In this document: positions 1-55,837 of the stretch, piece after piece
How positions within the stretch are numbered: the stretch's first letter is position 1
How the letters are laid out: each line of letters opens with the position of its first letter
Virus record (IMG/VR): IMGVR_UViG_3300020037_009485
Direction: 5' to 3' (one strand)
Length of the DNA stretch: 64,000 bases
Source of the DNA: an uncultured virus (IMG/VR IMGVR_UViG_3300020037_009485)
Taxonomy: Duplodnaviria > Heunggongvirae > Uroviricota > Caudoviricetes
Notes under the pieces: model-generated
What the model was told of the DNA's origin: nothing
Database searches by the model: none
The model's input: the letters and a program-made list of their open reading frames with translations, nothing else
Translations under genes and position numbers: made by a program

Positions 1-603
1 AGTATGTCCAATAAAAACCTCTTTGAAATTATTTTTCATTTTAAAAGGATAATTATTGTTTTTCATACTTGCATAGCTCTTAGCTGCTAAGAATAAATCT
101 CTATCCCAGTAGAATACTTCTGGGTCAGATTCCTCTTCAACTAACTTATGACGATCAAACCCACCGTGTACAAAAAAGTTATTTTCTTGATCAAGGTAGT
201 AATTTTTTTGATTGGCAAAGAAATTAATATGTGTTATAGGGTAATTGTCATAATCAAAATCTGTAGAATACTCAGAGAGTTTAATGGAAATTTCTTTATC
301 TGGGTCGCAATTTCTTATGTACGATTGTAAAGTTTGCTTACCACCTTGGTTGAATAAAATATTAGCTCGACCTGTTCTTATTGAATCATAAAAACAAACG
401 TCATGGTTACCCTTTATTGAGATTAGTTTTTTTATTTTTAATAATTCTTCAACACATTCGTAGCTCTGTAAACCTCTGTCTACAATATCCCCTAATTGTA
501 TTAGTTCATCGTTTTCATAGTCAAAGTTTACAGCTTTCAATGCAGCTTTTAATTTATCAGCTTCACCATGTATGTCCCCCATTACAAATCTTCTTGTTCC
601 CAT
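1..603 (-). CDS. PPP-family/calcineurin-like metallophosphoesterase (Ser/Thr phosphatase), 3' end runs off the window; missing from the ORF track
   Basis: Manual translation from ATG at 603: MGTRRFVMGDIHG...LGDIVDRG...KGNHD...FVHGG...FIGHT. All five metallophosphoesterase motifs are present and the frame is open to the window edge. Confidence 0.9.
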   Translation of the reverse strand, partial: MGTRRFVMGDIHGEADKLKAALKAVNFDYENDELIQLGDIVDRGLQSYECVEELLKIKKLISIKGNHDVCFYDSIRTGRANILFNQGGKQTLQSYIRNCDPDKEISIKLSEYSTDFDYDNYPITHINFFANQKNYYLDQENNFFVHGGFDRHKLVEEESDPEVFYWDRDLFLAAKSYASMKNNNYPFKMKNNFKEVFIGHT

Positions 604-986
604 TCTTTTAATTCATTATCAATTTCTAATATTAGATTGTCTGTTTGAATAAATCCAACAGATTCACCTTGATGTTCTTTTATCGGTAACCATGTTACTT
701 TTGAATCACCTGACAGTTGGAGTATTTCCAATTCCTCTGCAGGTAAAAATTCAACAATTTGAAAAGGGTTTGAGCCTGCTTTATAAGTGTCCCAAACACT
801 CTCAAGTAATATACTACCAGTTAATGTTTCAGTTACTAAAACGTTATCAAGAACTAAAATCCAAGATGAAGTAGCAAAACGACTTCCTTTTGTAAAAAAG
901 ATATCTCTAGTATAATGCTTGTAAACCCCTAAAACAATAGCTCCTTTATATAAACTATTTATCTTATATGTTTGACCTTTACTCAT
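582..986 (-). CDS. hypothetical protein, paralogue family A, C-terminal IxxEL tail
   Basis: N-terminal YKINSLYKGAIVLGV; C-terminal LILEIDNELK. Confidence 0.7.
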   Translation of the reverse strand: MSKGQTYKINSLYKGAIVLGVYKHYTRDIFFTKGSRFATSSWILVLDNVLVTETLTGSILLESVWDTYKAGSNPFQIVEFLPAEELEILQLSGDSKVTWLPIKEHQGESVGFIQTDNLILEIDNELKEWEQEDL

Positions 987-1329
987 TCAACTCATCATTT
1001 ATTGCTTTGATTATTATCTCAATTTGTATTAAAGGGAATAAGTCCATTGATACTGGTGTCCAGATAACATTGTCATGGTAACGTACTAAATTCCAATCAA
1101 CATAATATGTAACACTCTCTAAATCATTCCACTTTTCAATTGCATATTCACTTAAAACAAACCCATTCCTACCATCAACATTCAAATTTTTTTCAGAAGG
1201 GTCGAGAAATTTCAATAAAAGAAAACAACTTGAATTAGTAAATTTAGTAGATTCTTGGAACCACGTCCCAACAATTAACTTGCCATTTAACATATCTCCG
1301 ATTTTATATGGTTTTGATTTAACAGACAT
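979..1329 (-). CDS. hypothetical protein, paralogue family A
   Basis: YKIGDMLNGKLIVG...VIW...IIKAINDELNE. Confidence 0.7.
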   Translation of the reverse strand: MSVKSKPYKIGDMLNGKLIVGTWFQESTKFTNSSCFLLLKFLDPSEKNLNVDGRNGFVLSEYAIEKWNDLESVTYYVDWNLVRYHDNVIWTPVSMDLFPLIQIEIIIKAINDELNE

Positions 1330-2059
1330 GTTGTAAAATTATTTGTTGAAATCGTGAAATAATCATCTTAACATAAGTTTTAGCATCAAATCCATATGAC
1401 CCTATAGCCCAAAAGTCATTCACTTCAATTAAAACTGTTTCATTTTTATCAGTTACACCAACATCTAACGTGTAAGCTACTGGTGAACTAGTGTAAGTTC
1501 TTACCATTTCTTCAATTTTATCTATTGAAGGGAATGTTTTAAAATCACCTAGATAATATTGAATACCTTTGATCTCCCCTTTGTAAACGAAGACTCTATA
1601 TTCTGACTTAATTTTAATAAGATCACTTAAATAAACTAAAGTTTCACCTGGGACATTACAATATTCTTTTAAGAAGTTTATTGTACTTTCTTTTTCAATC
1701 AAACTACCTGAAAATAACTTAATTTTATCAGCTGGTTTTATGAAAAAAGGATAACTCCATTGTTTACATTCTTCTAATGTAATTTTACTAATCGTTCTAC
1801 CTAAGTATTGTTCTAACTCTTCTGGGTAACCTAAATATTTAGGTTCTTGAATTTTAAGCTCTTGAAAAAATGCACTCGTTGCTTCTACAGAACCAATAAT
1901 AATATCTGAAGATGTAATTCGTTTATTCAAAAGTGTGTTTTCTAAATCAGCACCATCAAATTTTACAATCGTATAACCTAAATCTTTTAAAGGTAAAACA
2001 GAACAGTAGACAAAGTCGTCTAAATACTCTTCACCTAATGTTTCTAAAAATGCTTTCAT
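1319..2059 (-). CDS. ATP-grasp domain protein (R2K/DUF4343-like)
   Basis: PFFIKP..KLFSG, SEYRVFV, YTLDVG, LIEVND motifs. Confidence 0.8.
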   Translation of the reverse strand: MKAFLETLGEEYLDDFVYCSVLPLKDLGYTIVKFDGADLENTLLNKRITSSDIIIGSVEATSAFFQELKIQEPKYLGYPEELEQYLGRTISKITLEECKQWSYPFFIKPADKIKLFSGSLIEKESTINFLKEYCNVPGETLVYLSDLIKIKSEYRVFVYKGEIKGIQYYLGDFKTFPSIDKIEEMVRTYTSSPVAYTLDVGVTDKNETVLIEVNDFWAIGSYGFDAKTYVKMIISRFQQIILQHVC

Positions 2060-2352
2060 GAGTTTAGTTCTAAATTTATTTGATTAATTGTAAATTCAAA
2101 TTCTTGACTTGAAAAATATATATCTCCAATGTCAACAACTGTCCAAGCAACACGAGTACCTTCTTTCAACCAAGTACTATATTCTACTGTAAACCCTGGA
2201 GTCCAATTACGCTCTACACCTACTTCATAAGTCCAACCATCACTATTAGGAAGTAATATAGCTCCAGAATCACGAGTTGAATTAACATACACTCCTAAAA
2301 TTCGTTTAAGATTTCCACCATCTTTGTAAAAACTATTTATCGTATAACTCAT
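2056..2352 (-). CDS. hypothetical protein, paralogue family A
   Basis: YTINSFYKDG...ILGV...VAW...TINQINLELNS. Confidence 0.7.
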   Translation of the reverse strand: MSYTINSFYKDGGNLKRILGVYVNSTRDSGAILLPNSDGWTYEVGVERNWTPGFTVEYSTWLKEGTRVAWTVVDIGDIYFSSQEFEFTINQINLELNS

Positions 2353-2659
2353 TGTTTATTTCGTTAACTATATTACTAAAAGATTCATCTACTATTTCAT
2401 CTGAGAACATAATTTGTTCTCTCAAAACAAATTTCCACAAAACTTTTCGACCACACTCCAAGTCATAACTTTGTTCAAACCTCTGCTGAACTTCAGGTAC
2501 GTATGCTTTTGCTGCACTCCAATTCCAACCGCTTTCTTCATCTGCAACTAATAGATAACCTTCATCCATTTGTTTATCATAAAGTAAACCTAAAACTAAT
2601 TTACCATCAAATAAACTACCAATAGTATATTTAGTATATTTTAACTTTTCAGATTTCAT
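2333..2659 (-). CDS. hypothetical protein, paralogue family A
   Basis: YTIGSLFDGKLVLGL...VLW...IVNEINNEL. Confidence 0.7.
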   Translation of the reverse strand: MKSEKLKYTKYTIGSLFDGKLVLGLLYDKQMDEGYLLVADEESGWNWSAAKAYVPEVQQRFEQSYDLECGRKVLWKFVLREQIMFSDEIVDESFSNIVNEINNELYDK

Positions 2660-3015
2660 GCATTCAATTCTCTATTAATATTATCTACAATAACTTCTAA
2701 TGATTCAAAAACTTCTCTACTAAACTTATCAGCTGACAACCAAACATATTTTTTTCCTTCTTTTAAAAAGTTTTTAGCAATTAAAAATTCTTGACTTTCC
2801 CATGCTGCAATATGACTTGTCACCTTTGTTAAAACAAATGAATGTGCTAACCAAGAAGGTTTTATTAAATTATTAGAACCTTCTACAGAACTACGAACTT
2901 CTAACAATAATTCTTGATTAGATTTTACACCTGTAAAACTTTTACCTGTTACACCTCGAACGACTAAATAATAACCGTCTTTAAAAAAAACTTGATTTAA
3001 AAAAAACTTATTCAT
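2656..3015 (-). CDS. hypothetical protein, paralogue family A
   Basis: VVRGV...LLLEV...YVW...IVDNINRELNA. Confidence 0.7.
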   Translation of the reverse strand: MNKFFLNQVFFKDGYYLVVRGVTGKSFTGVKSNQELLLEVRSSVEGSNNLIKPSWLAHSFVLTKVTSHIAAWESQEFLIAKNFLKEGKKYVWLSADKFSREVFESLEVIVDNINRELNA

Positions 3016-3397
3016 TGTTTAATTCTTGTGTTATTTTTTTTATTTCTTCAGCCATTAAAAATGAATCTAATTCAACACCGAAAGATAATAAAACAGTGTT
3101 CATTAATACAATATAACGAGAGTCTGGAAGTAATACTTTTTTATCTATAAAATGATTTTGTTGTTCCCAATTAGCGATATACAAGTTAATATCTTCCCCC
3201 ATAACAAAACTATAATCATTCAATTCCCACTGACTATTCAAGTGTGTATAATTAATTCCTTTATAAATCTCTAATAATAATCTTTGAGGTTTATTCGCAA
3301 ATCCATTATCCATCACACCGCGGACAATAAAATCAAGTCCTTCAAAAGAATAAACTTGTCCAAGACGAAACCTACCTAAAGATAATGCTTTACACAT
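3008..3397 (-). CDS. hypothetical protein, paralogue family A
   Basis: IVRGV...LLLEI...EIKKITQELNNE; closest to 2656..3015. Confidence 0.7.
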   Translation of the reverse strand: MCKALSLGRFRLGQVYSFEGLDFIVRGVMDNGFANKPQRLLLEIYKGINYTHLNSQWELNDYSFVMGEDINLYIANWEQQNHFIDKKVLLPDSRYIVLMNTVLLSFGVELDSFLMAEEIKKITQELNNE

Positions 3398-3722
3398 TTG
3401 AATCTAACTCAATGTTAATATTTAAAATTATTTGATCTAAACTAAGTAACTCTACTTCCTTAGAAGGTAACCAACAGTAAGCATTTCCAATTTTAAGATT
3501 TGCTTCATCTAACAAAGGTTCTCTTACAGACCAATTATCTAACATTGAACGTGTTAGAAAAAAACAAGTCCTACCATCAATAAAACTTACCTCTTTACAG
3601 TCTACTAATATCCATTCAGAACCTCTGTCTTGCATTATACCTCTTACAACATATTGTTTGTCTTTATAAACAATTGTATTGTTAACAGAGATTGGTTTGA
3701 ATACATTTTGTGTTAATCCCAT
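3390..3722 (-). CDS. hypothetical protein, paralogue family A
   Basis: VVRGI...WILV...YCW...IILNINIELDSNV. Confidence 0.7.
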   Translation of the reverse strand: MGLTQNVFKPISVNNTIVYKDKQYVVRGIMQDRGSEWILVDCKEVSFIDGRTCFFLTRSMLDNWSVREPLLDEANLKIGNAYCWLPSKEVELLSLDQIILNINIELDSNV

Positions 3723-3958
3723 TTTGTTCTAAACTTAGATGTACTTGGTTTTATAACTTTCCATTCTTCTTCTTTAATTTGATGTGCTACTAATTTTCGT
3801 TCTAAACTCTTTGTAGTAAACCCTAACAAAGCAACTGCTTTATTGAAACGTTGAGTTCTTTTTAATTCTCGAACAATAATTCTTCTTTCTAATGCGTTTA
3901 AATTCAATTCACCTTGATAATCTTCAGGTTGAAAAACATAAATTGTCTGTGTTGCCAT
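3713..3958 (-). CDS. Fis-type helix-turn-helix (HTH_8-like) DNA-binding protein
   Basis: LNALERRIIVRELKRT..NKAVALLGFTTKSLERKL matches the Fis/NtrC C-terminal HTH pattern. Confidence 0.7.
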   Translation of the reverse strand: MATQTIYVFQPEDYQGELNLNALERRIIVRELKRTQRFNKAVALLGFTTKSLERKLVAHQIKEEEWKVIKPSTSKFRTKWD

Positions 3959-3959
3959 G

Positions 3960-4367
3960 TTAACTTTCTAATTCTTCGTTTATACTACTTATAGTTTTGC
4001 TTAAAAGTAAAATGTTTTCTGAAACCTTTTCCAAATATGTAACATCATTTGATATCCATGTTGCTAAACTGAAAAGATCTTCTTCTTGAAGATTAGACTC
4101 TTCAATGTAAAACTCTTTCTGATGCTCTGTTAATTCTCTATTAATTATATCATGTGTTATTCTAAAAAGTGTGGGGGTGATAGTTTGAGTAGGAAGTACT
4201 TTATATGGAGCACCGTCTATAATTTTTATTAAAGTTTTATTCCAATTTTTTTTAGCGTAATCACTTAAAAACTTTCTAACAACAACAACTTCTCCAATAA
4301 AAGTTTGATGCCCTATTATAATTTTAACTATATCACCTAAAACTAATTCCGTATCTCTTAAGCTCAT
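3960..4367 (-). CDS. hypothetical protein with C-terminal IxxEL tail
   Basis: LVLGDIVKI (KOW/SH3-like start); ends TISSINEELES. Confidence 0.65.
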   Translation of the reverse strand: MSLRDTELVLGDIVKIIIGHQTFIGEVVVVRKFLSDYAKKNWNKTLIKIIDGAPYKVLPTQTITPTLFRITHDIINRELTEHQKEFYIEESNLQEEDLFSLATWISNDVTYLEKVSENILLLSKTISSINEELES

Positions 4368-4726
4368 TGTGAATTCAATTCAACGTTAATTTTTATAATT
4401 TCTTTTTCTATATCTTTTATTTCTATTAAACAAATTTCAACATCTGACACCCAAATACATTCATCTCCAAAGTGAGAGGTAATATTTTCTGAAACATCTA
4501 TAGTAAGCTGATTATTGGAAGCCCAATTAGCAACAGTCCACTCTTTCAAACAAAACACCCTATCATCTGGGTCTGTCAGTGATTCAAAAAAAGCAGTTGG
4601 TAAACTTTTAACTGGTATACAATAACTAAGTGCACAACTACGACTAGGGGTAGAATGGATTGCATAAATTTCACAAATGCAATCCATTCGTTTAAAAACA
4701 CCTGCTGTATAGGGAAACTTCTCCAT
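4364..4726 (-). CDS. hypothetical protein with C-terminal IxxEL tail
   Basis: CIW motif, then EIIKINVELNSQ. Confidence 0.65.
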   Translation of the reverse strand: MEKFPYTAGVFKRMDCICEIYAIHSTPSRSCALSYCIPVKSLPTAFFESLTDPDDRVFCLKEWTVANWASNNQLTIDVSENITSHFGDECIWVSDVEICLIEIKDIEKEIIKINVELNSQ

Positions 4727-4727
4727 A

Positions 4728-4925
4728 CTATTCTTCTAATAGAGTTATATCTAAAATTGATTTGATTTGAATATGAGGCTGTCTACTGATAGTGCAACAC
4801 AAACCTACACTAGGAAAGAATTCACTTTCACCAACGAATTGAAGAATACCAAAATGTTCTTCACCTTTTTTATCTTTAACTTTTACTCTTTTTCCTAAGA
4901 TATGAGTTAGCGCTTCTATTTGCAT
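4728..4925 (-). CDS. small hypothetical protein (SH3/Sm-like)
   Basis: ORF at the head of the operon; GKRVKVKDKKGEEHFGIL. Confidence 0.55.
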   Translation of the reverse strand: MQIEALTHILGKRVKVKDKKGEEHFGILQFVGESEFFPSVGLCCTISRQPHIQIKSILDITLLEE

Positions 4926-4972
4926 ACGAGTTCTCTATATACCTGAATATAAGAAATATTTTATAAACAACA

Positions 4973-4995
4973 AAACCTGCAATCTCTGCAGGTTT
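4973..4995 (-). terminator. intrinsic terminator-like hairpin
   Basis: AAACCTGCA-ATCTC-TGCAGGTTT; near-identical copy at 57639..57661. Confidence 0.6.
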
Positions 4996-5249
4996 CACTA
5001 GGTAATTTTTAAGAAATTTAGTTAACTTTCTTTGTTACTGTCGTTAACATTTACTTCAATAGGGGTAAGTCTACCTAACCCTAGAATACGTTTTTTAAAA
5101 TCACACCCAACGATAAATCAAAAACCAAATAATTCTAGCTTTTAACACACCTAATCTGGTCCTTAAACTACAATTTTTATAGCGTCCTCTTTCACTGAGA
5201 CATTCAATTATCATCATTTTCCTTTCTAAGGTAAGTTTATCTGTTTTCA

Positions 5250-5885
5250 TTAATTTTCAACAAATTTGATTTTTTGACCAGTTAATTTTTCAATATAACT
5301 AACATATCTATTTAATAATTTAATTTCCTCAGGTGATTTTTTCTTCACACTTGTTAAACCTTTAGCAGTTAAATTATCAACAACGCTTGCAGGTTGAGAT
5401 TGAGTAGTTTGTTTACCTTGTTCTTCTTTAATTTTATCAAACTCTGCTTTAATATTTTCACCTGCAAGATATTTGTTAGCAAATGAAACTAAACTTAATA
5501 ATTGCTTTCTAGTATCGTTTCCAGCTTTTTTATTTGAATTTAACAATTCAGCAAAAGTGTTTTTATCAAACTCATCGTTTTTATGTTTAGTATTTATTAC
5601 AGTGTTATAAATATTTAACCAAGTAGTTATTTGATCTAACTTCATAGTGTTTATTTCTTCTGAAGATAAACCTGATTTACTTTCTACCTCTGGTTTTAAC
5701 AACGTATCAATTGCTGGGAAGTTACTATCAATATAAAACTTATTTAAAGCAGTATATTTTTGAAACAAATCAGTAATTTGATTAATTTGTTTAATTTTAG
5801 TTTCATGTTGCGGAGTTAGCTTATCTTGATTTGCTAACATCTCCAAAGCTTTATTTAACTTCTGTATATTTTGTTGATAATTCAT
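5250..5885 (-). CDS. hypothetical late protein ending in the EKLTGQKIKFVE motif (putative internal head protein)
   Basis: Motif shared with 5 other proteins; CTATTTA upstream at 5907..5913. Confidence 0.6.
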   Translation of the reverse strand: MNYQQNIQKLNKALEMLANQDKLTPQHETKIKQINQITDLFQKYTALNKFYIDSNFPAIDTLLKPEVESKSGLSSEEINTMKLDQITTWLNIYNTVINTKHKNDEFDKNTFAELLNSNKKAGNDTRKQLLSLVSFANKYLAGENIKAEFDKIKEEQGKQTTQSQPASVVDNLTAKGLTSVKKKSPEEIKLLNRYVSYIEKLTGQKIKFVEN

Positions 5886-5913
5886 TTTTAACTTAGATTA
5901 TATTGATAAATAG

Positions 5914-6666
5914 TTATTTATTATCTAATTCATCAAACATATCTTCAATAATATTAATTATTGGGTTTCTCACCTGATCTGTTTTTTCAAACTTTACAAC
6001 CCCAAAGTGAGAATTACCTTCAAACTTTTCTGTTAACCATAACAAACAAGATTCTCGCTTTTGCTTTAAATCTATTTGCTTAACATCTCCAGTTATAATT
6101 ATTTTACTATTTTCCCCTATTCGAGTTAAAACAGCTTTCATTACATCATAACTTAAGTTTTGAGCTTCATCTACAATAATAATCGTATTATCAATCGATC
6201 TTCCACGAATAAATGCTAAAGGTTGTATTTCAATCAACCCTAATTCTTGTAATTTGTTAGCATTAGCTGGTCCTATCAATTTAGTAAAATTATCTTTGAA
6301 AGATTCCATATAAGGTTGCATTTTATCTTTCAACTCACCTTTTAAAAACCCTACTTCTTCACCTTTCAAATCAGTTACTGATTTAACTAACATGATTTTT
6401 TTAAAATGTGGTTCTGATTTCAATAGTTTTAAAGCTTGTGCAGCTGCAAGAAAAGTCTTACCACAACCTGAAAACCCAGCACCAATTATAATTTCTTTTT
6501 CTTTGATTAAATTGACGAATTTTTTTTGATTTTCTGTTTTACATTTAAAATTTATGTTTAAGTTATTCAAATTAAACTCGTTAGGTTTAGCTCTTTGATT
6601 CATACTTCGAACAATTTCATCTTCTTCCTCAGAGGATAAACGCTTTTTACTTTTCGGTTTTCTCAT
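5914..6666 (-). CDS. phoH: PhoH family ATPase
   Basis: GFSGCGKTFLA, GFLKGELKDK, AFIRGRS, IVDEAQN, TRIGENSK, TGDVKQID, VRNPII. Confidence 0.95.
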   Translation of the reverse strand: MRKPKSKKRLSSEEEDEIVRSMNQRAKPNEFNLNNLNINFKCKTENQKKFVNLIKEKEIIIGAGFSGCGKTFLAAAQALKLLKSEPHFKKIMLVKSVTDLKGEEVGFLKGELKDKMQPYMESFKDNFTKLIGPANANKLQELGLIEIQPLAFIRGRSIDNTIIIVDEAQNLSYDVMKAVLTRIGENSKIIITGDVKQIDLKQKRESCLLWLTEKFEGNSHFGVVKFEKTDQVRNPIINIIEDMFDELDNK

Positions 6667-6680
6667 TTGTTATGTATTAG

Positions 6681-7754
6681 TTAATCTTCTATTGTTAAAT
6701 AGTTATTTATTATCTCTTGTGCTTGTTCATAAGAAACAATTACTGTTTTATTTTTACCTACTGTTTGTATTACTTTCAAATGACTTGTTAGTGTTATAAA
6801 TTCTTTTAAAGTTTTATATTGATATTTTTTTCCTGAAGCGTTAGCTAAATCTTTAAATTGATTAAAAGAAGGTAAAATAGCACCAGTTGTTGTTTTACCA
6901 TTGTTGTATAGAACTCTTAAGAGATCAAGGTAATTAATAAGTTTATGATAGTTCGCATTGTTTACAAGAGCTTCTTTCTTTTCTTTGAAAGAAAGAAATG
7001 CATAATATTGAGAGAAACCTACACCTATTAAAATTAACAATTCAATAAATGCAGAAATCAAAATAAAAGCTATTTGATTTTTACTAGATTTTTCTTTTTC
7101 TTTCTCTGCACTTAATAATGAAACTTGATTTGCTTCTTTAATCTTATTTTCTAATACTTGTTTGTTTTTTTCTATTAGAACTTCCCACCCTTGTACTTGT
7201 TGTACTTCACTCTCTGTTAAGCTTTTCTTTTTTCTTTGTGCAGCTGCTGTATAAAGATAATCAATTCTATCTTCTAATTTCTTATTTTCAACAACATAAT
7301 AATTTGTTAAACTATCATTTACTTTATTGATACTTTGTTGAGTATTAATCTCAATGACCTCTGATTTATTAGCATAATGATTTGCTCCACTTAAAGATAA
7401 ATAAAAGGTTAAACCTACAAGAGATAAGGAAAAAATTAAACTTAGAAAAAAAGTTAAGGTTAGTTTCTTTGTAGTTAGATAAGAAACTACAGTGTTTGCA
7501 AAGGTAAATCGTTTAGCAAATTCAAATATTGTTAAGAAAAGAACAACAAAGATTGGTAATATCCAATCTTGACCTGCAAAATGAACTGCTGTTTCTTTGG
7601 AAATTTTATTAACAAAGAAGAAAGCAAGTATAATACTTAGTAAGTTCCCTAAAAAAGAACCATAGTATAAAGTTTTATTAGTCCAGTAATGAGTTTTTTC
7701 GAAGCGTTTGTTTTCAAATTTCTTTTGCAATGAGTGATATTTTCCCAAATCCAT
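6681..7754 (-). CDS. multi-pass membrane protein with coiled coil
   Basis: About 4 hydrophobic segments flanking a coiled-coil region. Confidence 0.6.
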   Translation of the reverse strand: MDLGKYHSLQKKFENKRFEKTHYWTNKTLYYGSFLGNLLSIILAFFFVNKISKETAVHFAGQDWILPIFVVLFLTIFEFAKRFTFANTVVSYLTTKKLTLTFFLSLIFSLSLVGLTFYLSLSGANHYANKSEVIEINTQQSINKVNDSLTNYYVVENKKLEDRIDYLYTAAAQRKKKSLTESEVQQVQGWEVLIEKNKQVLENKIKEANQVSLLSAEKEKEKSSKNQIAFILISAFIELLILIGVGFSQYYAFLSFKEKKEALVNNANYHKLINYLDLLRVLYNNGKTTTGAILPSFNQFKDLANASGKKYQYKTLKEFITLTSHLKVIQTVGKNKTVIVSYEQAQEIINNYLTIED

Positions 7755-7796
7755 AATATATTTTTTTAGTTTTATATAAAATTGGTAAAAATCTCG

Positions 7797-9971
7797 TTAA
7801 ATTGCCTTAGCCACGATATCGCTCTCGGGGTATTTTACTTCAAAAATAGTATCACTATAAGGTAATATTACTCCATTAACTTGATTCATTAAAAACTTAT
7901 TGTTACTTAAAGAAGCTGGAGTAGAGGAATTGTTTCTATAACGACCTGTTTCTATTGGAGAATAAACTCTACCTGATATAGGGTCTATATTACTTGTTGA
8001 TGTTCCGAAAATATTATAAAATTTCAAATCAACAACGTTTATCACACCGTTAATCTCTTGTAAAATAGTACTTACGTTTGATACAAATATTGGTTGATTA
8101 ATTTGCCAGTTGTTAATATTAAAATAATCTCTTAATTTATTTAAACATTCAAGTAATACTTGTTGCTTATTTTTCTTATCTACTAAAACTGTAAATTCTA
8201 CTTGAATATTTACAATTCTAGCATCTACTATATCAATCCAATCCCCTATTAATCTTTTTGTAGATAAAAATTCTCTTATATTTGTTTTCAATAATTCATT
8301 TGGTGATATCCAAATGTTATCACTATTTTTATATGCAGAAAGTAATTGTTGATTTTCATCTATTCCTAATACATATAACCTAGCCTTTTCCCCAATCCAT
8401 AAACTTGGTGCTACACCTAATAAGTTTAAAGATGTAGTATCTAACGTTGATTGAACTGTTGTATTATTTATAGTAACTGGACCATTTCTTAAATCTGTTA
8501 AGAATTTAGAAATAGCTTGTGCTTTCTGTTGTCTCCCTACTGCAGTAGTTTCTGCAAGTAAATCAGTTAACAATGAATTGACACCATTTTCTACTTGTTG
8601 ATAATTTGCCACTCTTGGTTTTATTTCCTCATAAGCTATACGAAAAGGTCTACCAAACTCTGGTGGCATAGTTGAAATGATACTCTTAATATCTTCATAA
8701 GTTACACCTCTGTCTTGTGCAGCAAACAATTTAGATGCAGTTGCTCTTATCTCTTCTTTAGAAGGAGCAGCTTTACCACCCATTGCTGGTATATCGTTTC
8801 TTACTTTCAACGAGTTTCTAACAGTTTGTAAATCTGTTAAAGATGCTGTTGGTGATGCAGGGAAAAATGTCTTGATAGCAACTGTGTTAATTTGACCTGT
8901 TTGAACATTAGATTCAACTCCGCCACCAATTCTATACTTTATAAATAAAGTTGTGTTCGGGGCAGGTATTTCACCTAAAACAGAATTTTGTAATACAGTA
9001 TTCAAAGAAATTGTACTTGAATTAACAACACTTTGTTGTATTAAACTATTAAAAGAATCAAACAATGGTGTACTAGAACCAAAAGTTAAAGAAACTAAAC
9101 CATTAACATCTCTTCTAGTAATAAATCTTTTAGGAATATCTACATATGTTCCTTGTTTTACTACTGGAGTAATATAACTTGCTAAACTTTGAGTAACTTG
9201 TTGAGTTGTATTTATATCAACGAATAATTTATTATCTGCTAAAGCTCTTACCTCAAACCATGCTTTGTCTGGGTCAATAAAATCTTCATCTGGAGGTGCT
9301 ACATATTGATTACCTGTCTTTGTAACAACACCTACAACTTCAGTAATATCATTATCATCTAATGTAATGTTTAAAAAAGGTTTAGCTAAATCAGCTGATA
9401 CATAAAATCTTTGTATTTTTGTCTCACCAGCCTTTGCAACTACTGCTTTTTCTACTACATAATCAATTATTTGATTGTTAGCATCAAAATTAGGGATTAT
9501 TTGTCGATTGAATGAATCAGCAAAATTAACTTCTTCTAAGATTTCAAAACTAACACCACTGTCTGATTTTAATAATATCCCAGGTTTCAAAGCAGGTAAT
9601 AAATCAGAGTTAGGAGAAACAACTCCTGTTAAAGGGTCTACATATTTAGGTACTGTGATAGATAACATCACTTGAGTTGAAGCAGGTGTTTGACCTAATT
9701 CAAAAAACCCTAAATCTTGTGCAATTCTAACTAATGATAAACCTGCTTGTGCAGTTGATAGAAAACTTTCGTTAAAACTCTTATCTGTATAATAAGATAA
9801 CATATCTCCTACGAAAGCACACATTTCTGCATACATTATATCTGGTGAAGCATCGTTAAAATAAGCAAACTTATCCGGATGATATTGTTTTGCAAAATTA
9901 ATTAAATCTTCTCTCAAAGAGTTAAAATCTCTACTTAAATAATTAACTTGAACGTTTTGTGTACTTGCCAT
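7797..9971 (-). CDS. baseplate wedge subunit (T4 gp6-like)
   Basis: NYLSRDFNSLREDL, FVGDMLSYY, YRIGGGVESNV, AQDRGVTYED; lies next to gp25 and gp5. Confidence 0.85.
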   Translation of the reverse strand: MASTQNVQVNYLSRDFNSLREDLINFAKQYHPDKFAYFNDASPDIMYAEMCAFVGDMLSYYTDKSFNESFLSTAQAGLSLVRIAQDLGFFELGQTPASTQVMLSITVPKYVDPLTGVVSPNSDLLPALKPGILLKSDSGVSFEILEEVNFADSFNRQIIPNFDANNQIIDYVVEKAVVAKAGETKIQRFYVSADLAKPFLNITLDDNDITEVVGVVTKTGNQYVAPPDEDFIDPDKAWFEVRALADNKLFVDINTTQQVTQSLASYITPVVKQGTYVDIPKRFITRRDVNGLVSLTFGSSTPLFDSFNSLIQQSVVNSSTISLNTVLQNSVLGEIPAPNTTLFIKYRIGGGVESNVQTGQINTVAIKTFFPASPTASLTDLQTVRNSLKVRNDIPAMGGKAAPSKEEIRATASKLFAAQDRGVTYEDIKSIISTMPPEFGRPFRIAYEEIKPRVANYQQVENGVNSLLTDLLAETTAVGRQQKAQAISKFLTDLRNGPVTINNTTVQSTLDTTSLNLLGVAPSLWIGEKARLYVLGIDENQQLLSAYKNSDNIWISPNELLKTNIREFLSTKRLIGDWIDIVDARIVNIQVEFTVLVDKKNKQQVLLECLNKLRDYFNINNWQINQPIFVSNVSTILQEINGVINVVDLKFYNIFGTSTSNIDPISGRVYSPIETGRYRNNSSTPASLSNNKFLMNQVNGVILPYSDTIFEVKYPESDIVAKAI

Positions 9972-9983
9972 TGCTTTTTTACT

Positions 9984-10829
9984 TTATTTCTTAAATTCCC
10001 ATTTATATTTACCAATTGTTGTTCTTCCTTTATATGAATTACAACATTCACTTATTCTAGAAGATGCTATATTTAGTGTCAACGCAGCTTCTTTTATTGA
10101 TGACCATTCTTTAACACTACCGTTTTCAAGAGATTTTTGCAAAACTTTTTTACAACGCTTTTCTGCATTTTTTCTAACTTGCTCACAATTTTCACTAGTT
10201 TTACCTTTCCAAAAGGTAACCGGGTTTTCCAATCGTCTTTCACGCATTTTAGCCTTAGCGACTTCTGAATGTTTATTTAACTTTTTTTCAACTCTCGTTT
10301 GTAACATTTTCTCTATTGATTCTAAAGATCGAGAATATGAATTGTTTTTTGTTCGTGTTTTTTTTGTTTTTTTACCTGCTAGTTTGGCAATTTTTTTTCT
10401 TTCTTTTTTTTGCTCTATAGTCATTTTTGCATAAAATACTTTATGACTTTTACTCATTTTAATTTTTGTCGCATTAGAAATTTTTTTACCTAAATTTGCT
10501 AGACGTAATTTTACCCGAGTAGTTTCAGAACATTTTACCTGTCCATACCCGCCACTGTTTCCATTAGTTAAATTAAACCCCCATGATTTATATAAACTGA
10601 TATAATGTTGTTCCCAAAATTGCCATTCTTTAAAAGAAACTTCATCTATGATTAAAAGTTCTGGTTTTAAATCTTCTTTTAACAAACTTTTAATCCAACT
10701 ACATTTATGTGTTTTTGTCTTATCTGTTAAATGTGCTTGTAAACGATACTTAGGCTTATTTGCTTTCCCAATATATCTTACTTTATTATCTCTAGGGTCA
10801 ATCAGTGCATAAATAAATGTTGTTTCCAT
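9984..10829 (-). mobile_element. free-standing GIY-YIG homing endonuclease with NUMOD3/NUMOD1-like DNA-binding repeats
   Basis: FIYALIDPRDNKVRYIGKA...RLQAH...EQHYI...NLTNG; repeated S.ET..K(L/M) units; C-terminal EWSSIKEAA...ISECC...YKWEF. Confidence 0.85.
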
Positions 10830-10877
10830 TTACTTTTAAGTTAAATATAACAAAATAAACAATTTTTTTTCCCTGAA

Positions 10878-11261
10878 CTACTGTATTAACAGTTCAAGTT
10901 GAGATATGTCAGATAAAGCTGTACCAAACTCTACGTTAACTTTTAAAACACTTGTATTATTCTCTATTACTTTAGTTAAAGTAATGTTAGTAAATGTAAC
11001 TCCAGGGAATTGTTTAGTTAATTCATTTTTCAATTCATCAGCAAAACCTGATAAAGCTTCTTGTGGAATTAATTTATGTTGCAAAGAAGGTAAAAAAGAT
11101 CCAATAGGATTCCCTCTTCTCTGACCTTTTTCTGTTATCAAGAATAATTTTATAGCACTTGTTATCGTATCGTTAACTGTATGAGCTCTTTTCAACCCAT
11201 TTGTTTCTGAGTCTTTTTGAAAAGGAAAAAGTAATGAGGCAGATTTTTTCATTAATGACAA
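10878..11261 (-). CDS. baseplate wedge gp25-like protein
   Basis: LLFPF...IKLFLITEKGQRRGNPIGSFL. Confidence 0.8.
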   Translation of the reverse strand: MSLMKKSASLLFPFQKDSETNGLKRAHTVNDTITSAIKLFLITEKGQRRGNPIGSFLPSLQHKLIPQEALSGFADELKNELTKQFPGVTFTNITLTKVIENNTSVLKVNVEFGTALSDISQLELLIQ

Positions 11262-11599
11262 ATAATTCTTATGATTGTTGGTGAACTTGTTGAACCAATA
11301 ACACTTATTGTTACTGTTTGATCGTTTATATCTTTTATATAAGGTAGATTACCTGAATATTGTGGTATTATTAAATTTACACTTGGTGTATAACCTAGAC
11401 CGTGTGTAAAACTATATACTCCTAAGTTGTTTGTAATAGTTACTAACCCTGAATCTTTTGTTTCAGTTATAGCTTTTGCTGATATTTTAGCTATCATAAC
11501 TGATTTTGGAGATGGAGCAATTCCAGGTGTTGTTAGATTTGATATCTCTACACCTGCTGCTAACATTTTTTTCTCTATACCTTCTTGTCTTGTAGCCAT
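11252..11599 (-). CDS. hypothetical baseplate/tail-associated protein
   Basis: Lies between gp5 and gp25; FTHGLGYTPSV beta-rich C-terminus. Confidence 0.45.
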   Translation of the reverse strand: MATRQEGIEKKMLAAGVEISNLTTPGIAPSPKSVMIAKISAKAITETKDSGLVTITNNLGVYSFTHGLGYTPSVNLIIPQYSGNLPYIKDINDQTVTISVIGSTSSPTIIRIICH

Positions 11600-12712: not shown

Positions 12713-13055
12713 CGTCTTCGTCTTCTTGTAAGTACATATCTAACCCTTTTACGATGTTTTCTGGAGACATATCATCTTGATTTGTAGATTTATCTAAAAA
12801 TTCTTTAGATTTTACCCTATCCTTTACTAGATTTACTACTTTTATTATTCGATCCCTTGCAGCTCCTTTGATTTTTAAAGCATCAGATAATAAAGTACCA
12901 TAACTTTCTTTACCTAAAGTGTTATTTAAAACCTCTGTTTTATATAAGTTTACATTTAAGTTTGCTTCTTCAACATCGTCCAAACAACTGTTATATAAAT
13001 CGTTTATAAGTTCCTCTAGTCCATCATCACTAACTTTAACTTTTTTCTTAGCCAT
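12702..13055 (-). CDS. hypothetical protein
   Basis: In-operon ORF. Confidence 0.6.
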   Translation of the reverse strand: MAKKKVKVSDDGLEELINDLYNSCLDDVEEANLNVNLYKTEVLNNTLGKESYGTLLSDALKIKGAARDRIIKVVNLVKDRVKSKEFLDKSTNQDDMSPENIVKGLDMYLQEDEDGDE

Positions 13056-13455
13056 TATTAATTTCTTTTTGAATATTAATTACTACTTTCTCAAACTCAG
13101 ACAATTCAGGTTGATTTATGTACCCTATATATAAATCTCTTGTAAAAACTGTACCTAATTCATTATGAAGTGATGTAGTATAATAACTGTCTTTATCTAT
13201 AAATAAATTTTTTTCATCTATAAAATCAAACTCATCTACAAAATTTATTACTCCCCTTAACATAACGTGTGAAGTCATTATTCTAGATGAATTTATTTCC
13301 GGGTATTTTTCTAAAATTTTATGCTTAATACTATTTGCCATTGTTTTAGTTCTACTAACCAAAGCAACTGTTTTTCCATTCAATACCTCTACAACTAATC
13401 TTTCTATAAGTCTAGCTGTTTTCCCTGTTTGTCTTGGTGCAATTTCTACATACAT
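13048..13455 (-). CDS. stand-alone terminase-like P-loop ATPase fragment with IxxEI tail
   Basis: PRQTGKT (Walker A), FVDEFDF (Walker B); only 135 aa; ends VVINIQKEINNG. Confidence 0.65.
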   Translation of the reverse strand: MYVEIAPRQTGKTARLIERLVVEVLNGKTVALVSRTKTMANSIKHKILEKYPEINSSRIMTSHVMLRGVINFVDEFDFIDEKNLFIDKDSYYTTSLHNELGTVFTRDLYIGYINQPELSEFEKVVINIQKEINNG

Positions 13456-17245: not shown

Positions 17246-17575
17246 TTAATCAACTTTAGTCTCTAATTCTTTTTTAATCTTATCTATTTCTTGATGTAGT
17301 TCTATATGTTTATCATAAGCATCTTTATCTATTAAGTTATAGACTGGGTAAATTAACTTAATATCAACACCATATTCTATAGAAGTATCTGGAACAACAA
17401 TTACTTTAACAGTAAAACCTTCTTGTTCTAATTCTTTTTGTAAAATAGTTTGAACTTCTTGACTACTTTTCGTTGCCTCCTCCATCCTAAGTCCTTTTAT
17501 ACCTATAGTTGCTTGAAATATTAAATAATTTTTAATCATAATGTATTTTGCTTTGTTTCTAATTCCATAAACCAA
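17246..17575 (-). CDS. hypothetical protein with IxxEL-like tail
   Basis: Ends EIDKIKKELETKVD. Confidence 0.55.
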   Translation of the reverse strand: MVYGIRNKAKYIMIKNYLIFQATIGIKGLRMEEATKSSQEVQTILQKELEQEGFTVKVIVVPDTSIEYGVDIKLIYPVYNLIDKDAYDKHIELHQEIDKIKKELETKVD

Positions 17576-41709: not shown

Positions 41710-41913
41710 ATGAACCCTGTTTTAGTAACTCTTCTTGCTTGTGTTTTCTCTTTTATATTTGGCTTTAAACTTTGTAAAAAGTATTATAAGGTTGAATTAT
41801 TACTCTCAACTATTGCTTTTATAACTGACATGATTTCTCAGAAATATACAGATGAACAAGTAAAAGAGAAAATTGAAAAGTGGAAAGAACAACTTAGGAA
41901 AGAAGGTTTATGA
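41710..41913 (+). CDS. small membrane protein
   Basis: Hydrophobic N-terminus. Confidence 0.55.
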   Translation: MNPVLVTLLACVFSFIFGFKLCKKYYKVELLLSTIAFITDMISQKYTDEQVKEKIEKWKEQLRKEGL

Positions 41914-42331
41914 AACGTACTAAATCTGAAAAAGAAACTCTTAACCAACTTGTTCAACAGTTAAAAGTTGGTGATCTCGTATACTTAGACTTTTCCGAAA
42001 ATTTAAACAAAAACTTTTTAGTTGTTGGAAAATTCTTAGGACATGAAACAGACCTTGAAAGACCAGTTGATCATAGTTACTTTTTGAAATTGATGAAGTT
42101 TCATATAACTTATTAGAAGAACGGTGGGAAAAAGATCTAGATGCAGTTCACGGTTGCCCTTATACGAGAGAGATGTTAACTGAAGAGAATTGGAATTATT
42201 TCACACCAGAAAACTATGCTGATTACATGGTTGAAATTCAAAGAAGTGCACTTAAAGATTATATTTCTTCAACTCCTACCTTACCTTTTATTGTTGCTCA
42301 AATAAACGTTGAATTAAATGAAACTAGGTGA
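41910..42331 (+). pseudogene. frameshifted family-A-like gene with INxELN tail
   Basis: Frame 1 gives LKVGDLVYLDF...PVDH. The -1 frame from about 42077 gives LLFEIDEVSYNLLEERW...FIVAQINVELNETR* (TGA 42329..42331). Confidence 0.7.
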
Positions 42332-42623
42332 TAAAGTTTTTGTCAAAGAATTATCAACATTAAAAGAACAATATCAACTAAGTTCAGACGGTTTTGATCT
42401 AGGTCATGAAACGTTTACAACTTCTATGTTTTTCTATTGTAGGAAAGAAGTAGAAATTGTAGAAGAAATACTCCCAAATGTGTTTATAGTTAAATATGAT
42501 GAACATATCGCTCCTTGGAATTTTCCTATACTATGTTTTGAGATACGTACTATTGCTCATATATTATATGAGATAGACGAAGAACTTAAAGAAGATATAA
42601 GAAATAAAAAAGAGCTAAGTTAA
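42318..42623 (+). CDS. hypothetical protein with IxxEL tail
   Basis: MKLGDKVFVK...ILYEIDEELKE. Confidence 0.65.
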   Translation: MKLGDKVFVKELSTLKEQYQLSSDGFDLGHETFTTSMFFYCRKEVEIVEEILPNVFIVKYDEHIAPWNFPILCFEIRTIAHILYEIDEELKEDIRNKKELS

Positions 42624-42638: not shown

Positions 42639-42661
42639 ATTATTTATGTAATTAAACTAGA

Positions 42662-46148: not shown

Positions 46149-46928
46149 TTACTTTAACTTAGCAGATATTTGTAAGTACTTTTCAACTCCAAGTATATTC
46201 AAATATGTTTGTTCCGATTCAGTTAATTGATTTAAAGTTTTAATTTGTTTATTATTTAAACCACAAACACCTTCATAACATTGACTTTCTGTCAACAGTA
46301 AAGAAGATTTTTTAGATGAACTTTCTGTTAAATCTAATTTTTCTGAACCAAAGTTAGATGCACTATCTACTAAATCCCAACAAATTAATTCTAAGTCTTC
46401 ATCTACTATATCATGCTCTGAATAAGAATCTTCTTGTAATGACCCTAATGCTCTTGATGAGATACCTATATTTTTACCATTTAAAATAAAACCTCTAACC
46501 ATTTTACCTGGTGCTGTTTCTGGCATAAAAGCATTTAATACTTTTACTCTACCGTAAACATCTTTACCTTTAAACCAGATATCATCAATTGTTGCACATG
46601 CATTATTAAGATCTGGGGTTGTAGAGTTCTCTGGGTGATTTAATTCACAATATGATAAACCTGTATTAACTTTTTCTTCCATATATCTTAAACATTCTCT
46701 TTTAAGATATTCCCATGGATAAATTCTATTATTTCTATTTGGCTTATCCCCTGTTTGAATAATACCTGTTAAGAATAAAGGCAAATCAGGATTACGTTTA
46801 CATCTTTCTATATAAGATTCTCCACCTTCTGATTCTAATAAAAAAGTAGATGCTTTAGAGTTCATCTTTCTTTTTCTGTCCCACTTAGACTCATCTAATA
46901 AAAAACGTTCTTTTCTTATTGATTTCAT
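46149..46928 (-). CDS. prohead protease (T4 gp21-like)
   Basis: NRNNRIYP, CELNHP (catalytic His), GISSRALGS (catalytic Ser), WDLV. Confidence 0.92.
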   Translation of the reverse strand: MKSIRKERFLLDESKWDRKRKMNSKASTFLLESEGGESYIERCKRNPDLPLFLTGIIQTGDKPNRNNRIYPWEYLKRECLRYMEEKVNTGLSYCELNHPENSTTPDLNNACATIDDIWFKGKDVYGRVKVLNAFMPETAPGKMVRGFILNGKNIGISSRALGSLQEDSYSEHDIVDEDLELICWDLVDSASNFGSEKLDLTESSSKKSSLLLTESQCYEGVCGLNNKQIKTLNQLTESEQTYLNILGVEKYLQISAKLK

Positions 46929-48032: not shown

Positions 48033-48926
48033 ATGACTAAATTTGTAGTAGGTTCTTTAATTCGAATTAAAGGAACAAAATGTGAAGGTGTAATTAAAAT
48101 GATTGAATCAGAAAGTATTCCTAATAATTCAATTTCAAAAAAAGATTACTCTGCAATCGAAACAGCTGCTTTTGCTTATGTTACTTTAAATAAAGGGGCA
48201 ACATATTCTACAATGCGTGTCTTCAAGACAAAAGATGACCTTTGGAATTTAGCTAAAGTTCCATTCTCAGAATTAGAACTTAGAATAGCAGGTAACGCAA
48301 CTAGTGTTTACGAGCTACTTGTAAAAAACGATTTTGATGCATTACAAAAACTTAATAAAACTAAGCTTTTGAATAAACCACCTAGAAGTTTAGGGAGTTT
48401 TCATAATACTTTAGGGTATGCTCTTTCTCATTGTACTTATGAAATAATCGATTATCTCTTAAACAATGGAGTACCTGTTACTCGACCTAGAGATTTCTTT
48501 GCATTTTCTTTAAGAAACATAAAATTATCTATAAATGAACGTGTAGATTTAATGCTTAAACTTGACGTTGTTAAAGAAATACAACTTCGTGAAATAACTT
48601 TGAGACTCTTTCCGCTTGTACGTGAGATTTTCTTTGAACAAAACTTGAAAGCTTTCTTAACTGCTTTCCCAGCATATAAAGCTGATTTATTCTCTGAACT
48701 TTCTTCTGTTTTAAAATTAAGATATTTTTACACTTTTCGTGAAGAAAATTTAAAATGTCTAATTCAAGAAAGTTTTGATATTAGTTCTATTGATTTAACT
48801 AATTCAGGTGTTCCTAAGAATGAAGCTGAAAAGAATGTTGAAGTTTACGCAAAGTTGATTGAATATTCTAAGAACCCTTTGTTGTATGATATAGTGAATG
48901 AAGTTAATTCTGAATTAAGAAAATAA
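48033..48926 (+). CDS. hypothetical protein (possible ankyrin-like repeat) with IxxEL-type tail
   Basis: TLGYALSHCTYEIIDYLLNNGV; ends DIVNEVNSELRK. Confidence 0.6.
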   Translation: MTKFVVGSLIRIKGTKCEGVIKMIESESIPNNSISKKDYSAIETAAFAYVTLNKGATYSTMRVFKTKDDLWNLAKVPFSELELRIAGNATSVYELLVKNDFDALQKLNKTKLLNKPPRSLGSFHNTLGYALSHCTYEIIDYLLNNGVPVTRPRDFFAFSLRNIKLSINERVDLMLKLDVVKEIQLREITLRLFPLVREIFFEQNLKAFLTAFPAYKADLFSELSSVLKLRYFYTFREENLKCLIQESFDISSIDLTNSGVPKNEAEKNVEVYAKLIEYSKNPLLYDIVNEVNSELRK

Positions 48927-55041: not shown

Positions 55042-55079
55042 TTATGTATATCATCATTATAAATGATATATATAAATAG

Positions 55080-55475
55080 TTATTTTTTTAACTCTTTTGC
55101 TATTTGATATACAACATGTTCTATACTATCAGAATCTAAGAGATGTAAATCTCCTAAGATTTCACGAAAGTCATGTACAATGTTATATTTTGGTACATCT
55201 TCATTCTGTGGAGTGTTAAAATAGTGAACAAGTGTAGTATAACCAATAGATGAAGGGGATAAGTTGAAAGATACCATTACTACTTTACCATAATCGCAAT
55301 GATATAGGGATAGTTTTCCGGAAAAAAACTTAATTAAAAATTGTATTTTCTCTGGATTGAAAGAACTTTGATGAGAGCGGACTTGTTCTTCTAAAAGTTT
55401 AAGTAGATCTATACAACGAAATATACTTTGCTCGTCTTCATTAACTCTAACAATTAATTTGTATTGTTGTCTCAT
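55080..55475 (-). CDS. hypothetical protein with IxxEL tail
   Basis: Ends IEHVVYQIAKELKK. Confidence 0.6.
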   Translation of the reverse strand: MRQQYKLIVRVNEDEQSIFRCIDLLKLLEEQVRSHQSSFNPEKIQFLIKFFSGKLSLYHCDYGKVVMVSFNLSPSSIGYTTLVHYFNTPQNEDVPKYNIVHDFREILGDLHLLDSDSIEHVVYQIAKELKK

Positions 55476-55837
55476 GATTCTAACTCTTGAGTAATTTCTT
55501 CAATAATTTTTTCTAAAGGATCTACACTTGAAAAAGCATATTTTACTATAAGATCCCAATCTTCCTGTATTGAAAGAAAAAAGAAATCTCCTCTCTCGTA
55601 TATAGAAAGAGTTTTTATATCTGCTGTTCCATAGTCCCATTCTACACCACAACCATGTTCCCAATGATTTAAGTGATAGTATTTGCTACTCGTAAAACAA
55701 GAATGACTTGTAACAAAATTATTTAACCTTTCTTGAAACTGTGCACCAACTACTGTAGACAACTCTTTAAACAAATTCATCATTTGTTGGTTTTCTATTT
55801 TATTAGTTACTTTGACTGTAAATAAAACTCCTTTCAT
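55472..55837 (-). CDS. hypothetical protein with IxxEL tail
   Basis: Ends LEKIIEEITQELES. Confidence 0.6.
   Translation of the reverse strand: MKGVLFTVKVTNKIENQQMMNLFKELSTVVGAQFQERLNNFVTSHSCFTSSKYYHLNHWEHGCGVEWDYGTADIKTLSIYERGDFFFLSIQEDWDLIVKYAFSSVDPLEKIIEEITQELES

Follow-up and report, generated by a model that had tools for sequence, protein, structure and literature searches.

Why should dozens of small proteins of one bacteriophage end in the same short helix? This question is raised by a 64,000-nucleotide stretch of DNA from an uncultured tailed virus (Caudoviricetes; IMG/VR record IMGVR_UViG_3300020037_009485), called here the window, in which the initial annotation, made from the sequence alone, had listed 17 proteins with a similar C-terminal motif. 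The window corresponds, on the reverse strand, to bases 58944-122943 (G000:C1) of a single 191,278-bp contig with a GC content of 29.7%; positions marked genome or G000 refer to the assembled genome and all others to the window. Comparison of the sequences leads us to conclude that the C-terminal helix is real, strongly selected and lineage-restricted, and that it is borne by about 40-50 small ORFans, while its being a portable tag is a live hypothesis.

The shared C-terminal ending

Open reading frames (ORFs) were called over the whole genome by a simple longest-ORF rule, a crude procedure which gave 299 non-overlapping ORFs of at least 40 amino acids (aa). The loose pattern [ILV]xx[ILV][NDTAQKS]xE[LI], counted within 12 residues of the stop, was found in 49 of these 299 ORFs (68 matches overall). 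Shuffling of the last 20 residues left a mean of 2.5 and a maximum of 9 ORFs with the pattern in 500 shuffles; this comparison, proposed in the initial annotation, rules out an effect of composition. Whole-protein shuffles gave a mean of 1.1 and reversed proteins gave none, and the N-terminal window of the same proteins contained two loose and no strict matches. The strict core I[ND]xEL is present in 36 of the 299 ORFs against a shuffle mean of 0.7. None of 302 unselected shadow ORFs carries the loose pattern, and it occurs in a single one of 409 ORFs taken from loci of other phages (25-35% GC) which bear an ATP-grasp gene related to the one in the window.

A hidden Markov model (HMM) of the tail scored 39 of the 299 ORFs at 12 bits or more, 36 of the 39 having themselves been seeds of the model, and none of the 409 control ORFs, the best of which reached 10.2 bits (three controls at 6 bits or more, 13 at 4 bits or more). 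The 39 ORFs are referred to below as strong carriers. About 20 more ORFs of the phage score between 4 and 12 bits, and since several of these lie in the same gene blocks as the carriers or are their body paralogues, the true number of carriers is probably near 45-55. The motif and its C-terminal position are thus real and far beyond chance; the shared ending had been correctly placed at the C-termini, as the shuffles, shadow ORFs and foreign AT-rich ORFs all confirm, and it is much commoner than first noted. About one in eight of the phage proteins carries the tail, all of them small ORFans.

The tail follows the pattern φ(-7)-x-x-φ(-4)-[IV](-3)-x-x-I(0)-[ND]-x-E-L-N, then one to four residues and the stop. 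Hydrophobic residues, numbered from the conserved Ile (0), occupy positions -7, -4, -3, 0 and +4, a spacing which would place them on one face of an amphipathic helix. When each position in turn was left out of the pattern, the expected residue was still found at I/V-3 in 32 of 33 tails, at Ile0 in 30 of 35, at Asn/Asp+1 in 33 of 41, at Glu+3 in 33 of 35, at Leu+4 in 32 of 33 and at Asn+5 in 18 of 33. Leu+4 is usually followed by 2-4 residues (range 0-12), the ends are polar, and the tail segment has a mean net charge of -1.7.

AlphaFold2 was run with paralogue alignments on two members. In the 84-aa member (genome 129889-130143) it predicted three strands and a helix at residues 65-83, with a predicted local distance difference test score (pLDDT) of 91 and 83 in the helix blocks and near 50 in the body (mean pLDDT 61; predicted template modelling score, pTM, 0.30). 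In the 116-aa member encoded at 979-1329 the prediction comprised five strands, two short helices and a helix at residues 100-115 (mean pLDDT 63, pTM 0.55). In relatives at 35-82% identity the pattern positions are kept, while the rest of the tail changes as fast as the body does; the 82%-identical orthologue P0002 of the 979-1329 protein, for example, retains INDELNE.

We also asked if the ending is conserved as protein or as DNA. Codons at the motif do not depart from synonymous usage of the genome at Ile (p = 0.40), Asn (p = 0.29), Asp (p = 0.96), Leu (p = 0.77) or Asn+5 (p = 0.82), the lowest value being that for Glu (p = 0.019, uncorrected). At Asn+5 the ratio of AAT to AAC is 14:7, with 14.5:6.5 expected. 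Among 630 pairs of tails, identical residues had the same codon in 1677 cases, fewer than the 1830 that chance would give; the most similar pair has 77% nucleotide identity over 39 nt. With no excess of codon identity between tails, a repeat element, recent gene conversion and a linker sequence are all argued against. Since synonymous codons follow genome usage and the tails have no excess DNA identity, conservation is at the protein level and, on this codon evidence, selection acts on the protein sequence of the tail and not on its DNA. The initial annotation had named two findings that would overturn its proposal, a motif no commoner at C-termini than composition predicts, and conservation at the DNA level only, with no synonymous variation. 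Neither holds: shuffled tails give far fewer matches, and synonymous codons vary as they do genome-wide.

A tail produced by chance in an AT-rich proteome full of I, N, K, E and L, or by a DNA-level element such as boundary repeats, start/stop overlaps or recombination linkers, can accordingly be set aside with near certainty. The low GC content, the many tagged genes that overlap the next start by 1-22 nt and the tails that read AATG at Asn+5 would suit such an origin, which is nevertheless refuted, as far as sequence analysis reaches, by the shuffles, the shadow and foreign ORFs, the codon variation and the tags that precede long gaps (intergenic distances of 32 to 4419 nt occur after tagged genes too). 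As to the overlaps themselves, the end of a tagged gene very often runs 4, 8, 11, 14, 17 or 20 nt into the beginning of the gene that follows, a frequency which suggests tight translational coupling through the blocks.

Carriers and their bodies

Strong carriers are 52-191 aa long (median 113), and the strong tag is found in 38 of 196 proteins below 190 aa and in one of 103 proteins of 190 aa or more (Fisher p = 8e-7). They are acidic, with a net charge per residue of -0.049 against +0.012 for other small proteins (Mann-Whitney p = 2e-9). Thirty of the 39 lie within genome 110-150 kb, mostly outside the window, and 34 of the 39 are on one strand. The tagged blocks are tightly packed between structural and replication modules and adjoin genes of a sigma factor, Hc1, thymidylate synthase and phosphatases. 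No Pfam family was found on the strong carriers at thresholds of 0.1, 0.001 and 0.05, and PHROGs gave nothing significant for the carriers scanned. Judging by size, packing and missing annotation, these are probably early or host-takeover proteins. The sequence comparisons indicate that the set is a lineage-specific, tandemly duplicated expansion of about 40-50 small acidic proteins.

One tagged two-gene cassette is duplicated in tandem at genome 139393-140718 (genes at 139393 and 139708, and again at 140036 and 140377), the second copy having the degenerating tails HSIEKELK and IMNIELLQE. Amid tagged blocks outside the window (genome 125941-127044) are also found an Hc1-type histone-like protein (PF07432, 8.8e-24) and a sigma-70-family factor; a very basic Hc1 beside dozens of acidic mini-proteins is a possible lead to a partner.

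Among the bodies, taken without their tails, are two alignable groups. Group A4 corresponds to the array of the window (9 genes), and group A3 consists of 15 genes which begin with F-K-x-G-D-x-V and keep a Trp. Alignment of the two body profiles with hhalign gave a probability of 1.8%. Against either profile none of 20 further tagged bodies and 130 untagged small proteins reached 50%; both profiles are shallow and insensitive, and such misses mean no detectable similarity rather than different folds. An iterative body profile within the genome recruited nothing beyond its seeds, and cross-searches of the genome with the A3 and A4 profiles added a single new member (genome 131873-132334, E 1.2e-4). 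The idea that the bodies of tagged proteins were copied from parts of larger proteins of the same phage was tried as well and rejected, no match at E<0.01 being found except a family paralogue.

A search of 1.84 billion representatives with the A3 profile returned 21 matches at E<=1e-3. Eleven are full-length small proteins that end in the pattern without exception; they belong to this phage itself or to relatives at about 35-99% identity. The other ten are longer proteins which match the profile in its N-terminal part only, over 2-6 tandem stretches, and Pfam gave for all ten sub-threshold matches of SH3 fold only (SH3_15, SH3_13, DUF4926, NHase_beta_C, R67 DHFR and others). Four of these ten SH3-like repeat proteins were examined to their ends and none has the tail, so such barrels exist without the tail helix.

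Structural searches gave leads of the same kind. The array model had no match in the PDB at E<=0.001 with Foldseek (best E 0.97), and in the VIA-wide structural search its best match had Z 3.8, in a weak list made mostly of KOW, Tudor, SH3, CAP-Gly and chromo barrels (Z 2.6-3.8), where matches below Z 4 may reflect a common arrangement only. The ESM Atlas offered no lead for an array member (best score 0.76). We take an SH3-like barrel as probable for both body groups, as a lead from the models. The bodies would then comprise at least two weakly supported groups, probably SH3-like beta-barrels, and about 20 singletons without detectable mutual similarity. One strong carrier of 191 aa (genome 43134-43709) has language-model features resembling helical-repeat clusters (0.93, a lead only), and its relatives at 62-70% identity all end in ...TI[NS]SEL.

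These results change the list from which the analysis started. Of its 17 entries 11 are strong, at 13-25 bits (ORFs starting at 582, 979, 2056, 2333, 2656, 3390, 3960, 4364, 42173, 42318 and 55080); the tail of 3008 is degenerate, 55472 is doubtful, and 13048, 17246, 19020 and 48033 score in the range of the controls (Table 1). The tag had been described as fused to different folds, among them a terminase-like ATPase, a protease-like domain and an ankyrin-like protein. As these three are among the weakest tail matches, with scores of 3.8, 7.4 and 5.4 bits within the control range, such fusions are not established, and the protein called ankyrin-like has no ankyrin or other Pfam hit. Many bodies are demonstrable paralogues, and both members that were folded are beta-rich and have the same architecture. 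Whatever the tail does, an argument from different folds must stand on the strong carriers, not on 13048, 17246, 19020 or 48033.

Possible roles of the tail helix

The reading we prefer, put forward with caution, is that the tail helix is a constant docking or self-association handle. The helix would face outward and bind a partner, either plugging each protein into one common partner or joining the carriers to each other, and differing specificities would come from the rapidly diverging bodies, of which many are probably SH3-like beta-barrels. The more specific proposal that the helix is the plug of an adaptor library, in which 40-50 small acidic early proteins with at least three unrelated body classes dock on one phage or host reader or on each other, seems to us rather doubtful; if it were true, the diversifying bodies would bring different host targets to a single reader. 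A handle is suggested by residue-specific conservation which includes polar positions (Glu+3, Asn+1, with Ile0 and Leu+4) across bodies without detectable similarity; in an ordinary core helix one would expect exchanges among I, L, V and M to be tolerated. Modelling points the same way, with the helix predicted at pLDDT 83-91 while the body of the same model is near 50, as do the four SH3-like repeat proteins without the helix, and both carriers and helix are acidic. Several results weigh against a handle. No candidate partner emerged, and because many carriers are true paralogues, simple common descent could account for a shared tail. Without the tails, BLASTP at E<=0.01 joined 8 of 861 tagged-tagged pairs, compared with 4 of 5544 tagged-untagged and 2 of 8646 untagged-untagged pairs (two of the "untagged" partners actually bear degenerate tails), and leave-one-out profiles recovered 5 of 8 testable A4 bodies (E 1e-8 to 0.018) and 8 of 15 A3 bodies (E 2e-4 to 0.05), missing three and seven, respectively. 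In orthologue pairs the whole tail is no better conserved than the body. The overall confidence of the AlphaFold2 models is low (mean pLDDT 61 and 63), the case for a non-beta body comes from one language-model lead, and an SH3-fold barrel capped by a C-terminal helix is a known architecture, described in PMC5906684. Another account, which we regard as possible, if not quite likely, is that the tail is the own capping helix of one very old, very divergent family of SH3-like (chromo/Tudor/KOW-like) paralogues, packed on the barrel, needed for folding and without a docking role, the seemingly unrelated bodies having diverged beyond detection. The tandem blocks and clear duplications, including the two-gene cassette, agree with it, as do the strands followed by a terminal helix in both modelled members, the barrels that prevail in the weak VIA list, the many bodies that open with F-K-x-G-D-x-V and retain Trp, and the drift of non-pattern tail positions as fast as the body between orthologues; the same source reports that a chromo-like core frequently has a C-terminal helix cap (PMC5906684). 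It is opposed by the A3 and A4 profiles being blind to each other, with 20 other tagged bodies matching neither, by polar Glu+3 and Asn+1 conserved above every body residue, by the absence of the helix from remote SH3-like repeat proteins (4 of 10 examined), by the strong carrier that looks all-helical, and by fold matches that all stay below Z 4.

The remaining explanations are improbable even when a degron or adaptor, a packaging signal and a substrate of the ATP-grasp enzyme are taken jointly. Clp C-terminal degrons such as ssrA (...LAA) are short and unstructured and have a nonpolar end. A degron or adaptor peptide for the phage ClpP and an AAA+ partner, serving the timed destruction of early proteins or their use as adaptors, is very unlikely: the phage does encode a ClpP homologue and, outside the window, AAA+ proteins, but the tail is predicted to form a stable helix, its end is polar, the distance from Leu+4 to the carboxylate varies (0-12 residues), and the Pfam scans recognised no ClpX-type unfoldase, the AAA+ hits being of generic AAA or MoxR/AAA_5 type. 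Still less credit can be given to a virion-packaging or ejection signal whose x-E is read by the prohead protease. A protease of T4 type is present, the motif has an all but invariant Glu (33 of 35), and HK97-fold shells offer known examples of unrelated cargo bodies that bear C-terminal peptides; yet the capsid-targeting signal of T4 is N-terminal and is cleaved at (L/I)-x-E with a hydrophobic residue at P3, whereas here the tag is C-terminal and Ile stands at P4, four rather than three residues before Glu. Cleavage would take off only 3-6 residues, the carriers are encoded in non-structural gene blocks, and to our knowledge some 40 packaged species would be unprecedented. That the tails are substrates or handles of the R2K ATP-grasp peptide ligase of the array, modified at the C-terminus in a RimK- or TTL-like manner, we hold to be most improbable among the three. 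Its gene sits between tagged genes, and phage R2K.2 enzymes are predicted protein-modifying peptide ligases (PMC4431377) which, in the published view, act on host proteins (PMC4431377, PMC7824862). However, most tagged genes are 10-60 kb away from it, and the single match among 409 ORFs around its homologues (29-54% identity) means that tag and enzyme do not travel together. These homologues, some of them on contigs of 299-519 kb, come from loci of other phages or of metagenomes and have untagged neighbours; no other recurrent tail endings were seen in the six loci inspected. The enzyme is probably not part of the tag system.

Genome setting and comparison with known systems

Features of the window are collected in Table 1. 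The tagged gene at 41910-42331, which the initial annotation had marked as frameshifted, indeed consists, by three-frame translation, of two frames of one gene joined at a run of T (the TATTTTTTGAAATT region, around 42085-42100); it could be a pseudogene, an assembly error or a case of slippage. The phage has three protease-related genes, namely the full prohead protease, the 157-aa mini-protein at 19020-19493, whose match to that family is confined to the N-terminal part, and the ClpP homologue, and BLASTP found no similarity between the first two.

Table 1. Positions of tagged ORFs, doubtful members and other genes in the window (bits, score of the tail HMM; body E, leave-one-out profile)
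Position	Strand	Feature	Bits	Tail (position)	Body and other evidence
582..986	-	tagged array ORF, 134 aa	19.3	TDNLILEIDNELKEWEQEDL (585-644)	body E 0.0074
979..1329	-	tagged array ORF, 116 aa	23.7	IEIIIKAINDELNE (982-1023)	
1319..2059	-	R2K-clade ATP-grasp enzyme between tagged genes		no tag	PF18299, 1.3e-34
2056..2352	-	tagged array ORF, 98 aa	25.1	FEFTINQINLELNS (2059-2100)	body weak, E 0.7
2333..2659	-	tagged array ORF, 108 aa	22.3	FSNIVNEINNELYDK (2336-2380)	body E 0.007
2656..3015	-	tagged array ORF, 119 aa	24.9	LEVIVDNINRELNA (2659-2700)	body E 1e-8
3008..3397	-	array paralogue with degenerate tail, 129 aa	5.8	MAEEIKKITQELNNE (3011-3055)	body E 5.6e-4; BLASTP paralogue of 2656-3015
3390..3722	-	tagged array ORF, 110 aa	18.6	LDQIILNINIELDSNV (3393-3440)	body E 0.018
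3960..4367	-	tagged ORF, 135 aa	19.5	LSKTISSINEELES (3963-4004)	no detectable array kinship, body E 5.5
4364..4726	-	tagged ORF, 120 aa	17.8	IEKEIIKINVELNSQ (4367-4411)	no detectable array kinship, body E 6.5
13048..13455	-	"terminase-like ATPase" of the initial annotation, probably chance match	3.8	end VVINIQKEINNG	P-loop matches sub-threshold only
17246..17575	-	ORF ending in EIDKIKKELE, Lys/Glu-rich end, probably chance	8.2		controls reach 10.2 bits
19020..19493	-	prohead-protease-like mini-protein, 157 aa, Lys/Glu-rich end, probably no tag carrier	7.4		phrog_207, 5e-10; PF03420, 6.5e-5, residues 3-89
41910..42331	+	one frameshift-split tagged gene (ORFs 41910-42116 and 42173-42331)	22.2	LPFIVAQINVELNETR (42281-42328)	LKVGDLVYL in N-terminal part
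42318..42623	+	tagged ORF, 101 aa, K-x-G-D-x-V type	21.0	tail at 42552-42620, motif followed by 11 residues	body weak, E 3
46149..46928	-	full T4-type prohead protease			PF03420, 3.5e-23
48033..48926	+	"ankyrin-like" protein of the initial annotation, 297 aa	5.4, weak	end IVNEVNSELRK	no Pfam or PHROG family
55080..55475	-	tagged ORF, 131 aa, adjoins terminase gene	13.2	IEHVVYQIAKELKK (55083-55124), Ala replaces Asn	singleton body, no similarity to either body profile
55472..55837	-	doubtful member, 121 aa	6.4, inside control range	LEKIIEEITQELES (55475-55516)	
57683..58345	-	ClpP homologue			PF00574, 1.1e-14

Scans with PHROG and Pfam describe a large myovirus with terminase, portal, major head protein, T4-type prohead protease, sheath, tube and baseplate, which also encodes its own sigma-70-type factor, an Hc1-like histone, DNA polymerase III alpha, genes of the PreQ0/queuosine pathway, the ClpP homologue and AAA+ proteins. 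With its 191 kb it is an orphan myovirus of the T4 superfamily. Its closest cultured relatives are only about 27% identical in terminase (tblastn), and megablast of window positions 1-20000 against cultured phages gave no match. IMG/VR scans with the ATP-grasp protein and the terminase yielded just one distant locus and identical copies of this phage, and word-indexed protein searches returned near relatives at 62-100% identity only. DNA of the array was found in contigs of several metagenome studies labelled as activated sludge, anaerobic digester, wastewater, freshwater and soil.

Some further observations were made on the same DNA. The assembled genome differs from the window at 24 of 64,000 positions (window 122-43172); these are strain-level variants, and two of the substitutions alter residues in tagged ORFs, e.g. 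N/S at tail position -2 of 2056-2352. Array contigs from several DNA metagenomes also show strain variants, among the variants listed. GTP cyclohydrolase and QueC-, QueD- and QueE-like genes are located at window 20053-20763 (-) and at G000 36488-43134 and 184582-185475, and their presence suggests a pathway of 7-deazaguanine (PreQ0-type) DNA modification. Homing-endonuclease-like genes (phrog_314, GIY-YIG, HNH) are scattered over window 9984-10829 (-) and G000 8438-9196 and 152607-164157, three paralogous GIY-YIG ORFs being included.

Full-text literature searches, whose coverage lay outside subscription journals, brought up no paper that describes the motif or reports any phage with a proteome-wide tag at the C-terminus. 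Short C-terminal elements on different proteins are known from several systems. In T4 the tails of gp43, gp55 and gp33 bind the gp45 clamp, and the XB tail of SspB as well as ssrA bind ClpX. These cases concern few proteins with unstructured peptides and one hub, whereas here about 40 ORFans share a predicted stable helix; a short unstructured peptide at a fixed distance from the carboxylate, typical of Clp degrons and the SspB tail, is not what the phage tail presents. The T4 capsid-targeting sequence and the cargo peptides of encapsulins are likewise terminal address tags, but the T4 tag is N-terminal and cleaved, and the carriers described here are encoded outside structural modules.

With a probable small beta-barrel followed by one terminal helix the carriers would resemble the capped chromo-, Tudor- and KOW-like barrels presented in PMC5906684. 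No significant sequence or fold match and no curated family links them to these barrels, and unlike them the phage carriers are acidic and keep the tail across dissimilar bodies. Bacillus phage G has about 35 copies of a zinc ribbon, reported in PMC7824862 as a lineage-specific expansion of unknown function. Both phages thus have dozens of mini-protein copies; in phage G the whole domain repeats, while here a 13-residue terminal helix recurs on heterogeneous bodies. If the tail is a family signature and nothing more, this would be an unusually large lineage-specific expansion of small, probably SH3-like phage proteins with a clean recognition motif.

Should the tail be a docking or self-association handle, as we prefer to read it, identification of its partner would explain at one stroke how dozens of ORFans act. 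Among the closest likenesses in logic are then the F-box, SOCS-box and poxviral ankyrin-PRANC families, in which a lineage-specific expansion also combines a short C-terminal helical module with diversifying bodies. There is no sequence relation to the F-box and PRANC families (no Pfam hits on the strong carriers), the phage bodies are tiny, and bacteria are without a ubiquitin system. In that case the tail would be a compact, transferable docking peptide and a bacterial-virus counterpart of F-box/PRANC logic.

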